The position numbers were made by a program, and so were the translations under genes. The notes beneath the pieces were generated by a model. The model was not told the origin of the DNA. It made no database searches and saw only the letters and a list, made by a program, of their open reading frames with translations. Positions 14,861-18,284 of a DNA stretch of 64,000 bases are shown piece after piece (within the stretch, counting starts at the first letter, position 1; each line of letters begins with the position of its first letter). The stretch comes from Escherichia coli (GTDB taxonomy: Bacteria; Pseudomonadota; Gammaproteobacteria; Enterobacterales; Enterobacteriaceae): assembly GCF_003334765.1 (NCBI RefSeq), contig NZ_QOWT01000009.1. One strand, given 5' to 3'.

Positions 14861-15281
14861 GCTTCGCCCGGCCACGCAGTACGACACCGACGCGGTTTAC
14901 GCGCTGATTTGTGAGCTAAAACAGGCGGAGTTTGACCACCACGCGTTTCGCGTGGGTTTTAACGCCAATCTGCGCGACCCAAACATGCGCTACCATCTGG
15001 CGCTGCTTGATGGCGAAGTTGTCGGCATGATCGGCCTGCATTTGCAGTTTCATCTGCATCATGTCAACTGGATCGGCGAAATTCAGGAGTTGGTGGTAAT
15101 GCCGCAGGCGCGCGGTCTGAACGTCGGCAGTAAGTTACTGGCGTGGGCAGAAGAAGAAGCCCGCCAGGCCGGGGCCGAAATGACCGAACTTTCGACCAAC
15201 GTGAAGCGCCACGACGCGCACCGTTTCTATCTGCGCGAAGGCTACGAGCAGAGCCACTTCCGCTTCACCAAGGCGCTGTAA
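14847..15281 (+). CDS. phnO: GNAT acetyltransferase PhnO (aminoalkylphosphonate N-acetyltransferase)
   Basis: ORF track; overlaps phnN end. Confidence 0.94.
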
Positions 15282-15282
15282 C

Positions 15283-16041
15283 ATGAGCCTGACCCTCACG
15301 CTCACCGGCACCGGCGGCGCACAGGGCGTTCCGGCATGGGGCTGCGAGTGTGCGGCCTGCGCCAGAGCGCGGCGCTCGCCGCAGTATCGCCGCCAACCGT
15401 GCAGCGGCGTAGTGAAGTTTAACGACGCAATCACCCTGATCGACGCCGGGCTGCACGATCTCGCCGATCGCTGGTCGCCCGGATCGTTCCAGCAGTTTTT
15501 GCTGACGCATTATCATATGGATCACGTCCAGGGGCTGTTTCCGCTGCGCTGGGGCGTTGGCGATCCGATCCCGGTTTACGGCCCGCCGGATGAACAGGGC
15601 TGCGACGATCTGTTTAAACATCCGGGCCTGCTTGATTTCAGCCACACGGTGGAACCGTTTGTGGTGTTTGATTTGCAGGGGTTACAGGTCACGCCCCTGC
15701 CGCTCAACCACTCAAAACTGACCTTCGGTTATCTGCTGGAAACGGCACACAGCCGGGTGGCGTGGCTGTCTGACACCGCAGGCTTGCCGGAAAAAACGCT
15801 GAAATTTTTACGCAATAATCAGCCGCAGGTAATGGTGATGGATTGCAGTCACCCGCCGCGCGCGGATGCACCGCGTAATCACTGTGATTTAAATACCGTG
15901 CTTGCGCTGAATCAGGTTATCCGCTCGCCACGGGTGATTCTGACCCATATCAGCCACCAGTTTGATGCGTGGCTGATGGAAAACGCACTACCGTCAGGGT
16001 TTGAGGTGGGGTTTGATGGGATGGAGATTGGGGTGGCGTGA
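15283..16041 (+). CDS. phnP: Metallo-beta-lactamase-fold phosphodiesterase PhnP
   Basis: ORF track; HxHxDH motif (THYHMDH) in translation. Confidence 0.95.
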
Positions 16042-16059
16042 TGAGAGGGAATGTGCGCG

Positions 16060-16170
16060 CTGGCCCCCTCACCCTAACCCTCTCCCCAGAGGGGCGAGGG
16101 GACCGATTGTGCTCGATATTGAATATTGCGCTCGTTTTCTCCCTCTCCCCATTGGGGTGAGGGGCGATGC
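16060..16170. repeat. Pair of GC-rich imperfect palindromes (ccctctcccc-N3-ggggNgagggg) downstream of phnP
   Basis: Two copies read directly (16066..16103 and 16141..16167); family assignment not possible without a search. Confidence 0.6.
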
Positions 16171-16187
16171 CTGCTCCATACCCAACC

Positions 16188-16517
16188 TCATCGCCCATAC
16201 TCATCTTCCATTCTCCGCTCTTCATCCTCCAGTTGCCGACGCTCCTGATCAAGCTGGCGCTGGCGATCGTCCAGCTGCCTGCGGCGATCTTCAAACTGGC
16301 GGCGGCGGTCGTCATATTGTCTGCGCCGATCGTCGCTCACTTCACGCTGCCAGCCGTCGTCGCGCGAATCTTCATAGTCTCGCCCACGGTCAGGGTTATA
16401 AGCGTCATTAATCGCCTGCTGAATATTGCCAATGGTGTCGTCGATAATATCGGCCTGGGCCGGAACGGTGGACAGCGTGAGCAGGGTGAATAAAAGAAAT
16501 AGCGGAAAGCGTTTCAT
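16188..16517 (-). CDS. yjdP: Secreted low-complexity protein YjdP (109 aa)
   Basis: ORF track; signal peptide then highly charged repetitive D/R/Q/E-rich region (DDRRRQ-like repeats). Confidence 0.85.
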   Translation of the reverse strand: MKRFPLFLLFTLLTLSTVPAQADIIDDTIGNIQQAINDAYNPDRGRDYEDSRDDGWQREVSDDRRRQYDDRRRQFEDRRRQLDDRQRQLDQERRQLEDEERRMEDEYGR

Positions 16518-16585
16518 TAGCCAACCTCAAAAAGAAACTCTATCCACATTAATCATTACTCATCCATGCAAGTAGTGGATGAATC

Positions 16586-17035
16586 TCAATTTCTCCGCTG
16601 CTCTATTGCCGTAATCGCCTCCACGCGTTGTTGATGACGACCGCCTTCGTACTGTGCGCCCAGCCACGCATCCACAATCATTTTTGCCAGTTCGAGGCCA
16701 ACCACTCGTGAACCAAAAGCCAGCACGTTGGTGTCGTTATGCTGCCGCGAAAGTTGCGCGGAATAAGGTTCGCTACAGACGACCGCGCGAATTCCGGCAA
16801 ACTTGTTCGCCGCTATCGAAATACCGACGCCAGTACCACAAATCAAAATCCCGCCATCAACCTCTCCGCCAGCAACAGCCAGTGCGACTTGACTGGCGTA
16901 ATGTGGATAATCAGTACGCTCTGACGACCAGGTTCCTTTATCAATCACTTCAACGCCACGCTCAACTAAATGTGCCACTATTTCATGTTTTAAAATGAAA
17001 CCGACATGATCACAGCCAAATGCAATCTTTTTCAT
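16586..17035 (-). CDS. rpiB: Ribose-5-phosphate isomerase B / allose-6-phosphate isomerase
   Basis: ORF track, 149 aa, recognised RpiB/LacAB-family sequence. Confidence 0.95.
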   Translation of the reverse strand: MKKIAFGCDHVGFILKHEIVAHLVERGVEVIDKGTWSSERTDYPHYASQVALAVAGGEVDGGILICGTGVGISIAANKFAGIRAVVCSEPYSAQLSRQHNDTNVLAFGSRVVGLELAKMIVDAWLGAQYEGGRHQQRVEAITAIEQRRN

Positions 17036-17393
17036 TCATCTTCCCCGTCCGTGCAAAACTTCACAATCAAAAAACATTTGTGATGTTAATGAATTAAAAA
17101 CACCCAAAATCGATGAATTACGCCTTCCTGATCTGTTTTACAGAGTTACATCTGACAGCGCAATAGCGTTAAAGACACTCACCATCCAGCAACATCTATC
17201 ATCTAAAAAACCAGAAAAACAAATAACATCATGTTTTTAAACTAATTAAATGAAATAAAATTTTAAGCCACTCGCCATTGTTCACAATAAAATAAACTTT
17301 ATAAATTTTATTTTTTTGTGAAGTCGCCAGCATCTTTTCTGTTCTTGCTGTGGTGATATAGTGGCGTCTTCAATTCAAGGACAAGAGAACGTG

Positions 17394-18284
17394 ATGAGCC
17401 AGTCAGAGTTTGATTCAGCGCTTCCGAACGGTATAGGGTTAGCGCCTTACCTGCGAATGAAGCAGGAAGGAATGACAGAAAATGAAAGCCGCATCGTGGA
17501 GTGGTTACTCAAACCCGGTAACCTGAGTTGTGCACCCGCAATTAAAGATGTCGCAGAAGCTCTGGCGGTATCTGAAGCGATGATAGTTAAGGTATCAAAG
17601 CTGCTGGGGTTTAGCGGCTTTCGTAACTTACGCAGTGCGCTGGAAGATTATTTTTCTCAGTCAGAACAGGTATTGCCTTCCGAGTTGGCTTTTGATGAAG
17701 CGCCGCAGGATGTGGTGAATAAGGTATTTAACATCACTTTACGCACCATTATGGAAGGTCAGTCGATCGTCAACGTTGATGAGATCCACCGTGCCGCCCG
17801 CTTTTTCTATCAGGCCAGACAGCGGGATTTGTACGGTGCCGGAGGATCAAATGCTATCTGTGCTGATGTACAGCACAAGTTCTTGCGCATTGGCGTACGC
17901 TGTCAGGCCTATCCTGATGCTCACATCATGATGATGTCCGCTTCGTTGTTACAGGAAGGAGATGTTGTGCTGGTAGTGACCCATTCCGGGCGAACCAGTG
18001 ATGTAAAAGCGGCCGTAGAACTGGCAAAAAAGAACGGGGCAAAGATTATTTGTATAACCCATAGCTACCATTCACCGATAGCGAAACTGGCCGATTATAT
18101 TATTTGCTCACCAGCCCCGGAAACGCCGTTATTAGGTCGTAATGCCTCGGCAAGAATATTACAACTAACTTTGCTGGACGCTTTTTTTGTCTCTGTCGCC
18201 CAGCTCAACATTGAACAAGCTAATATTAATATGCAAAAAACCGGCGCAATTGTTGATTTCTTCTCACCAGGCGCGCTGAAATAA
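17394..18284 (+). CDS. rpiR: RpiR/AlsR transcriptional repressor (HTH + SIS domain), 296 aa
   Basis: ATG 17394 with aagga RBS within ORF 17361..18284. Confidence 0.92.
   Translation: MSQSEFDSALPNGIGLAPYLRMKQEGMTENESRIVEWLLKPGNLSCAPAIKDVAEALAVSEAMIVKVSKLLGFSGFRNLRSALEDYFSQSEQVLPSELAFDEAPQDVVNKVFNITLRTIMEGQSIVNVDEIHRAARFFYQARQRDLYGAGGSNAICADVQHKFLRIGVRCQAYPDAHIMMMSASLLQEGDVVLVVTHSGRTSDVKAAVELAKKNGAKIICITHSYHSPIAKLADYIICSPAPETPLLGRNASARILQLTLLDAFFVSVAQLNIEQANINMQKTGAIVDFFSPGALK

Follow-up and report, generated by a model that had tools for sequence, protein, structure and literature searches.

The window, by which we mean the whole stretch of 64,000 nucleotides analysed, consists of K-12-like Escherichia coli DNA and is the reverse complement of the MG1655 chromosome at ~4.31 Mb, window position x corresponding to position 4,330,385 - x of NC_000913.3. 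According to both the open reading frame list and the NC_000913.3 annotation, phnP and yjdP converge within it on an intergenic spacer of 146 bp, and it is in this spacer that two GC-rich hairpins had been noticed (Table 1). Both copies of the hairpin motif named in the original prediction are present, as CCCTCTCCCCAGAGGGGCGAGGGG (hairpin 1) and CCCTCTCCCCATTGGGGTGAGGGG (hairpin 2). The pattern is unique to the spacer within the window, with 0.00 occurrences expected from 100 window shuffles, and all five of the GGGNGAGGG blocks in the window also fall inside the spacer.

Two features had been overlooked, namely a third block, CCCCTCACCC, at 16065-16074, which is joined to hairpin 1 by TAA, and the nature of copy 2, which is a deletion derivative of a three-block element. 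The presence of the third block beside hairpin 1 makes copy 1 a three-block element on the minus strand. The possibility that the two hairpins are tandem copies of one simple motif was rejected, since they are parts of oppositely oriented units of two types, A and B. Predicted RNA folding energies over the hairpins in the spacer range from -17 to -32 kcal/mol, the type A element with short flanks giving -23 kcal/mol on the plus strand and -32 kcal/mol on the minus strand. No repeat feature is listed at the spacer in NC_000913.3, and an Rfam scan of positions 15000-17500 (E <= 10) returned two matches, both at chance level, and no RNA family that fits.

Table 1. Features of the phnP-yjdP junction, in window coordinates.
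Feature	Position	Strand	Basis
phnP, last gene of the phn operon (TGA stop 16039-16041)	15283..16041	+	ORF list and NC_000913.3 (b4092)
Mechanical ORF, 136 aa, TTG start, reading across both repeats	16001..16411	+	ORF list
Complete type A BoxC unit, ~56-67 nt with conserved flanks	16049..16115	-	Alignment to five further type A copies from K-12
Three-block core CCCTCGCCCCTCTGGGGAGAGGGTTAGGGTGAGGGG, 36 nt	16065..16100	-	Exact catalogue match and regular-expression match
Hairpin 1, blocks 2 and 1 of the type A core	16078..16101		Repeat and pattern search
Short AT-rich spacer separating the two head-to-head units	16116..16133		Bounded by conserved unit flanks
Decayed type B BoxC unit with conserved GTTTTCT 5' flank	16134..16178	+	Alignment with intact allele L002 and six type B copies
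Hairpin 2, block 1, loop and block 3 of the type B core	16141..16164		Alignment with allele L002
yjdP, DDRRRQL repeat protein, convergent with phnP	16188..16517	-	ORF list, K-12 annotation and NCBIfam
21-nt (7-codon) periodic repeats inside yjdP	16245..16334	-	Repeat family D1; TRF period 21

BoxC units in the phnP-yjdP spacer

The hairpin pair is an already known and catalogued repeat belonging to the BoxC family, whose literature includes Bergler (1992), Bachellier (1996) and Hoyne & Maher (2000, 2002). BoxC is a known stem-loop family of E. coli, 56 bp in length (PMC2267715), and its members have been called in sequence BoxC, then PIT element and then TMECO (Holder et al. 2015, PMC4666352), the same family having also been published as HPG1/HPG2 (Kaplan et al. 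2016, PMC5100583). Copy 1 is one of the 23 TMECO copies catalogued for MG1655: its minus-strand core has exactly the sequence and position given for TMECO no. 22 (type 'A mm', MG1655 4,314,285-4,314,320; Table 1 of PMC4666352), and it is also HPGQ no. 51 of group HPG1, with a midpoint of 4,314,309 and listed between yjdP and phnP (PMC5100583). The element at this junction has therefore been catalogued by coordinate in two papers, and its instability, described below, is behaviour already published for BoxC.

Copy 1 fits the BoxC consensus CCCTCNCCC-N3-6-GGGNGAGGG-N3-GGGNGAGGG, with a regular-expression match at 16066-16100 on the minus strand. Copy 2, which has two blocks in the window, does not fit it because of a 12-nt deletion, and at the same site the consensus is matched in the allele of strain L002; copy 2 is also absent from the TMECO and HPGQ tables of PMC4666352 and PMC5100583. 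The second loop is TTA in copy 1 (type A) and CCG in the intact form of copy 2 (type B), the two lying on opposite strands. Copy 1 shares with BoxC/PIT/TMECO elements the three-block consensus, the TTA/CCG rule for the second loop, the inverted pairing of A with B, instability among strains and an intergenic site, which is constant in the family; the pair is flanked by the stop codons of phnP (16041) and yjdP (16188).

Alignment of six K-12 type A copies, including copy 1, revealed conserved flanks (..cggtc upstream and g[ag]acaggccagc.. downstream), as did that of copy 2 with the intact L002 element and six further type B copies (gttttct on the upstream side, ..cgcac on the downstream side), from which BoxC units are roughly 56 nt long or slightly longer. 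Because these flanks reach past the 36-nt core, nearly all of the spacer is BoxC DNA. Five paired K-12 loci were compared with phnP-yjdP (lldD-trmL, hrpB-mrcB, fepB-entC, ygfF-gcvP and alx-sstT), and both the inverted A+B pairing and the conserved unit flanks recur at all five. Inverted TMECO pairs are reported always to join one type A with one type B copy (PMC4666352), a rule that the phnP-yjdP pair follows. It differs from most of the family in being arranged head-to-head, as is lldD-trmL, whereas the other four of the five K-12 pairs are tail-to-tail.

Further copies of the motif elsewhere in the genome, which the original prediction had proposed to look for, are plentiful: all 5,426 complete E. 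coli genomes contain BoxC-type matches, at a median of 19 places each (range 2-34) and at ~96,000 places in total. Like REP/BIME elements, BoxC repeats are dispersed, GC-rich, imperfectly palindromic and extragenic and often lie between convergent genes, but the two sequence families are unrelated, BoxC having three blocks instead of two arms and ~20 copies per genome instead of several hundred. The REP consensus palindrome is of the GCCGGATG.. type, and identity of the phnP-yjdP repeats with REP/BIME was rejected on account of their poly-C/poly-G blocks, which are not REP-like, and the absence of a repeat feature at the spacer in NC_000913.3.

Strain alleles and the junction in other genera

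TMECO loci have been described as hypervariable, inverted pairs losing small parts yet keeping the ability to form hairpins (PMC4666352). At the phnP-yjdP junction, copy 2 lacks exactly 12 nt relative to the L002 allele, GGGGAGAGGGCC, which comprises block 2 and the CCG loop; L002 carries the complete type B element at the hairpin 2 site, reading CCCTCGCCCCATTGGGGAGAGGGCCGGGGTGAGGGG. The deletion falls between direct repeats of the type B core itself and leaves block 1 paired with block 3. Among the 5,426 complete genomes the L002 allele (type A plus intact type B) is found in ~65, and the allele shared by K-12 and the window, with type A and a type B shortened by 12 nt, is included in the ~3,100 with 80% or more of the K-12 spacer. 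In the O157 allele (L003), 70 nt have been lost precisely between two GAGGGGCGA repeats, which in the window lie at 16089-16097 and 16159-16167, in alleles L004 and L005 a single block remains, and in B2 strains such as EC958 (L006, L007) the spacer measures 27 nt and BoxC is absent. Overall, the spacer is mostly or wholly missing in ~40% of these E. coli genomes. The strain series provides a clean worked example of a three-block BoxC element becoming a plain hairpin and then nothing, via deletions between its own short repeats, and the decay would have proceeded by replication slippage between these internal repeats. The BoxC-free spacer of the B2 strains may be either ancestral or the result of deletion, the loci used for comparison having included no Escherichia outgroup.

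These loci comprised 80 enterobacterial phnP loci kept from a search of genome contigs with PhnP, none of them from Escherichia or Shigella; in 68 of the 80, yjdP lies convergent downstream of phnP. The two genes run directly into each other in Citrobacter amalonaticus, Kluyvera, Pluralibacter and others, where their stop codons touch or overlap (gatTAAcg) and leave zero spacer, which indicates that the spacer of E. coli is lineage-specific inserted repeat DNA and not a conserved regulatory region. BoxC units would thus have arrived by insertion at the convergent junction and been tolerated there.

The junction contains BoxC units in 14 of the 80 loci, in a variety of arrangements. Several Enterobacter species have one type-B-like unit, and in Leclercia (L070:2300-2420, L075:2250-2370) BoxC is accompanied by a REP-like sequence, gccgggtggcggctacgccttacccggcctac... 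Three or four tandem units of ~65 nt, each with a BoxC core and some of them decayed, are found in Lelliottia sp. WAP21 (L082:2300-2470) and Huaxiibacter chinensis (L087:2270-2510), from which it follows that BoxC is part of a larger unit able to amplify in tandem in these genera. In Enterobacter cloacae DSM 26481 (L080:2245-2290) BoxC has been cut to a two-block hairpin, ccctctcc-tgc-GGGAGAGGG, in parallel with the decay that yielded hairpin 2 in E. coli K-12. The Klebsiella michiganensis junction (L031:2250-2290) has a GC-rich hairpin unrelated to BoxC, so that, together with the REP-like sequence of Leclercia, differing repeat families can be seen to have colonised this site.

Pseudocitrobacter also has an A+B BoxC pair at the junction, where the flanks are homologous to those of E. 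coli and the ~106-nt A-spacer-B composite is inverted, its central spacer included (L008:2043-2148, L009:2285-2371, L035:2284-2389). Alignment scores were 104-110 in the reversed orientation compared with 33-38 in the forward one, with window 16065-16164 and the intact form L002:216-328 as references. Either the composite was flipped by recombination between its terminal inverted blocks, which in the window lie at 16065-16077 and 16152-16164 (family I6) and are 92% complementary, or it can insert in both orientations, these results suggest. PhnP of the same three Pseudocitrobacter loci is 94-96% identical to that of E. coli, compared with ~76-84% in the remaining genera of the set (Citrobacter, Kluyvera, Klebsiella, Enterobacter and others), which hints that the phn region has recently passed between Escherichia and Pseudocitrobacter.

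The composite could accordingly be regarded as a small mobile or invertible cassette of the MITE kind that targets convergent junctions, a reading compatible with the one we prefer (see below) and which we nevertheless consider doubtful. Its appeal lies in the terminal inverted blocks, in the inversion of the whole composite between homologous flanks in Pseudocitrobacter, and in the occurrence of BoxC at this one junction in E. coli, Pseudocitrobacter, Enterobacter, Leclercia, Lelliottia and Huaxiibacter when related genera have abutting stops; MITEs such as ERIC/IRU are likewise small non-coding repeats with terminal inverted sequences that occupy orthologous intergenic sites only in some lineages. 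BoxC differs from them in having no recognisable target-site duplication (none is evident by eye in the flanks of the composite) or cognate transposase, and in a composite layout that varies by locus, four of the five K-12 pairs being tail-to-tail, which argues that the composite is not a fixed unit. To our knowledge, BoxC has no dedicated transposase of the RAYT kind. The high identity of Pseudocitrobacter PhnP also means that this locus may share recent ancestry with that of E. coli via gene transfer, and Holder et al. found no association of TMECO with mobile elements (PMC4666352).

Transcript ends at BoxC hairpins

The hairpins had been proposed to act as a transcriptional terminator or insulator between the phn operon and yjdP. 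They do resemble intrinsic terminators, being GC-rich stem-loops downstream of a stop codon, but neither is followed by the U-tract that an intrinsic terminator combines with its stem-loop: sequence inspection and a terminator scan found no T-tract after either hairpin on either strand, the downstream sequences being ACCGATTG, CGATGCCT, AGAAAACG and GCCAGCGC. A scan for consensus terminators and promoters gave nothing at the hairpins, and its two terminator-like matches both lie inside yjdP. According to Holder et al. 2015, who cite Hoyne & Maher 2002 on this point, PIT elements displayed neither promoter nor terminator activity in reporter tests (PMC4666352).

At the level of the family, the published coordinates of other K-12 BoxC copies were overlaid on the Term-seq 3' ends of Adams et al. 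2021. Two transcripts pass through BoxC copies, that of adk ending at 497,939/40 (+), at a canonical hairpin-plus-U terminator ~60 nt beyond the BoxC, and that of ilvC ending past its BoxC at a canonical terminator at 3,959,531 (+). Four copies overall have a 3' end located 3-12 nt past the hairpin. At lldD, where the orientation and context of the BoxC are as after phnP, a 'primary' 3' end lies at 3,781,065 (+), 4 nt past the type A element; at hrpB, in the same orientation as after phnP, one lies at 164,636 (+), 5 nt past the type A element; in the fepB 5' region one lies at 624,567 (-), 12 nt past the type A element; and on the ppiC side one lies at 3,959,467 (-), just past the type B hairpin. 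The lldD 3' end, with an intrinsic-terminator score of 1.32 (threshold 3.0), counts as non-intrinsic and is situated inside a significant Rho termination region. By a rough Poisson estimate these four compare with 0.17 expected under a uniform spread of 3' ends, and the coincidence has P = 0.011 if 3' ends are enriched 5-fold in intergenic regions and P = 0.09 if they are enriched 10-fold. No nearby 3' end appears in the Adams et al. 2021 list at most of the K-12 BoxC copies searched. No relevant later publication connecting BoxC, PIT or TMECO with RNA ends or with mobility came up in a literature search.

REP elements are established as stem-loop barriers marking mRNA 3' ends, and REP/BIME RNA forms stable stem-loops that mark or protect these ends without being intrinsic terminators. 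Our reading is that BoxC hairpins are likewise not terminators by themselves and can mark RNA 3' ends. Rho-terminated transcripts are generally trimmed back by 3' exonucleases to stable structures (Adams et al. 2021), and the 3'-end marking by BoxC would probably reflect, by analogy, an exonuclease barrier after Rho-dependent termination. Where transcribed, BoxC hairpins would most likely be passive REP-like stem-loops at which the 3' ends of read-through or Rho-terminated transcripts gather. The idea of a terminator is thus not supported in the form in which it was put, although the RNA 3' ends past four members of the family lend it partial support. These ends also suggest that a REP-like shaping of 3' ends may have escaped notice when the elements were judged to be without terminator activity.

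The phn operon needs phosphate starvation for its expression. Between 4.312 and 4.316 Mb the curated Term-seq list contains no 3' ends in any of three conditions (Adams et al. 2021), in which the flanking genes were probably poorly expressed, and the TERMITe supplements have no 3' end entry at the phnP-yjdP locus. Given the phosphate requirement of phn and the apparent stress induction of yjdP, this absence is weak evidence. Because no 3' end is reported within the spacer, an RNA-level role at this locus is an extrapolation; if the copies at lldD and hrpB are a guide, the 3' end of the phn mRNA is predicted near window 16104-16106, possibly extending to 16112.

Taken together, the spacer is best explained as two BoxC units arranged head-to-head, a complete type A unit on the minus strand facing a plus-strand type B unit that has lost 12 nt, with most likely a passive, REP-like role at RNA 3' ends, and we put the probability of this reading at roughly 85%. 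The pair is ordinary unstable repeat DNA and no classical terminator; its BoxC identity, the copy number of the family, the series of strain deletions and the absence of the spacer in other genera are direct observations. For the phnP-yjdP locus itself the finding matters little.

A bolder and less likely view may be put forward tentatively, according to which BoxC copies after phnP, lldD and hrpB would be functional RNA elements that define or protect 3' ends in Rho-dependent contexts, the head-to-head pair forming a two-way 3' boundary between convergent operons, and would at the same time still be mobile or invertible, recolonising the junction across genera and flipping as a cassette. If true, it would overturn what has been published, namely that the family plays no part in transcription and does not move.

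Quite unlikely, in our estimation, is the reading of the original prediction that the hairpins are a selected bidirectional terminator or insulator separating convergent phn and yjdP transcripts. It gains something from the position of these stable hairpins between convergent genes, from the head-to-head layout, which presents each transcript with a hairpin first, and from the primary lldD 3' end 4 nt past an identically oriented copy, and a terminator role was also speculated upon by Kaplan et al. (PMC5100583). Against it are the absent U-tract on both strands, the negative tests reported for PIT elements, the read-through at adk and ilvC and the fact that one unit at the junction has already decayed, no 3' end being reported there either. 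Roughly 40% of E. coli genomes have a truncated spacer or none, and the stops abut in other genera, so that an insulator is also not a conserved need.

It is very improbable that the element acts as non-B DNA, in the form of an intrastrand triplex or a switch between G-quadruplex and hairpin, to regulate the neighbouring genes. The type A core does possess four G-tracts and three mutually complementary blocks, and oligonucleotides of the family, including those of the 'A mm' type to which copy 1 belongs, fold into triplex and G4 structures in vitro (PMC4666352, PMC5100583). In vivo DMS footprinting, however, gave no sign of a triplex, a duplex forms when the complementary strand is supplied, and the placing of TMECO copies was found to be unrelated to what nearby genes do, how far away they lie or which way they point (PMC4666352); moreover, hairpin 2 is without the third block on which a triplex or G4 depends, and the phnP-yjdP copy lies downstream of both genes and away from promoters. 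Finally, the notion that the two palindromes are chance GC-rich sequences with no common origin, which has nothing in its favour beyond their short length, can be dismissed in view of the zero copies expected in shuffles, the ~96,000 places in 5,426 genomes and the conserved flanks.

The yjdP gene

The remaining points of the original prediction concern yjdP. Its coding DNA proved to be internally repetitive, a repeat search giving a 21-nt period and TRF the same period with 3.5 copies, and the translation contains the periodic D/R/Q/E-rich repeats described, which run ...DDRRRQY DDRRRQF EDRRRQL DDRQRQL DQERRQL... after an N-terminal MKRFPLFLLFTLLTLSTVPAQA. They are heptad-like, of the form DDRRRQ[YFL], and follow an N-terminus resembling a signal peptide. 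The protein matches NCBIfam NF041443, 'DDRRRQL repeat protein YjdP', over residues 1-103 with 147.9 bits against a cutoff of 90, and the yjdP product bears the same name in RefSeq. As for its secretion, predicted export is the part that stands, the protein having been assigned a 'putative signal peptide' (PMC5105897), which is itself a prediction. Expression of yjdP is induced ~10-fold by an inhibitor of LolCDE, alongside colanic-acid and osmotic-stress genes (PMC5105897), and the gene is among the top repressed ones in an acid-resistance regulatory study.

The mechanical ORF that reads across both repeats was rejected as a real gene, since it overlaps the end of phnP, runs antisense to yjdP, comes mostly from the repeats and carries no annotation in NC_000913.3, and it had reasonably been called spurious. 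As annotated, yjdP itself measures 357 nt in EC958, against 330 nt in K-12.
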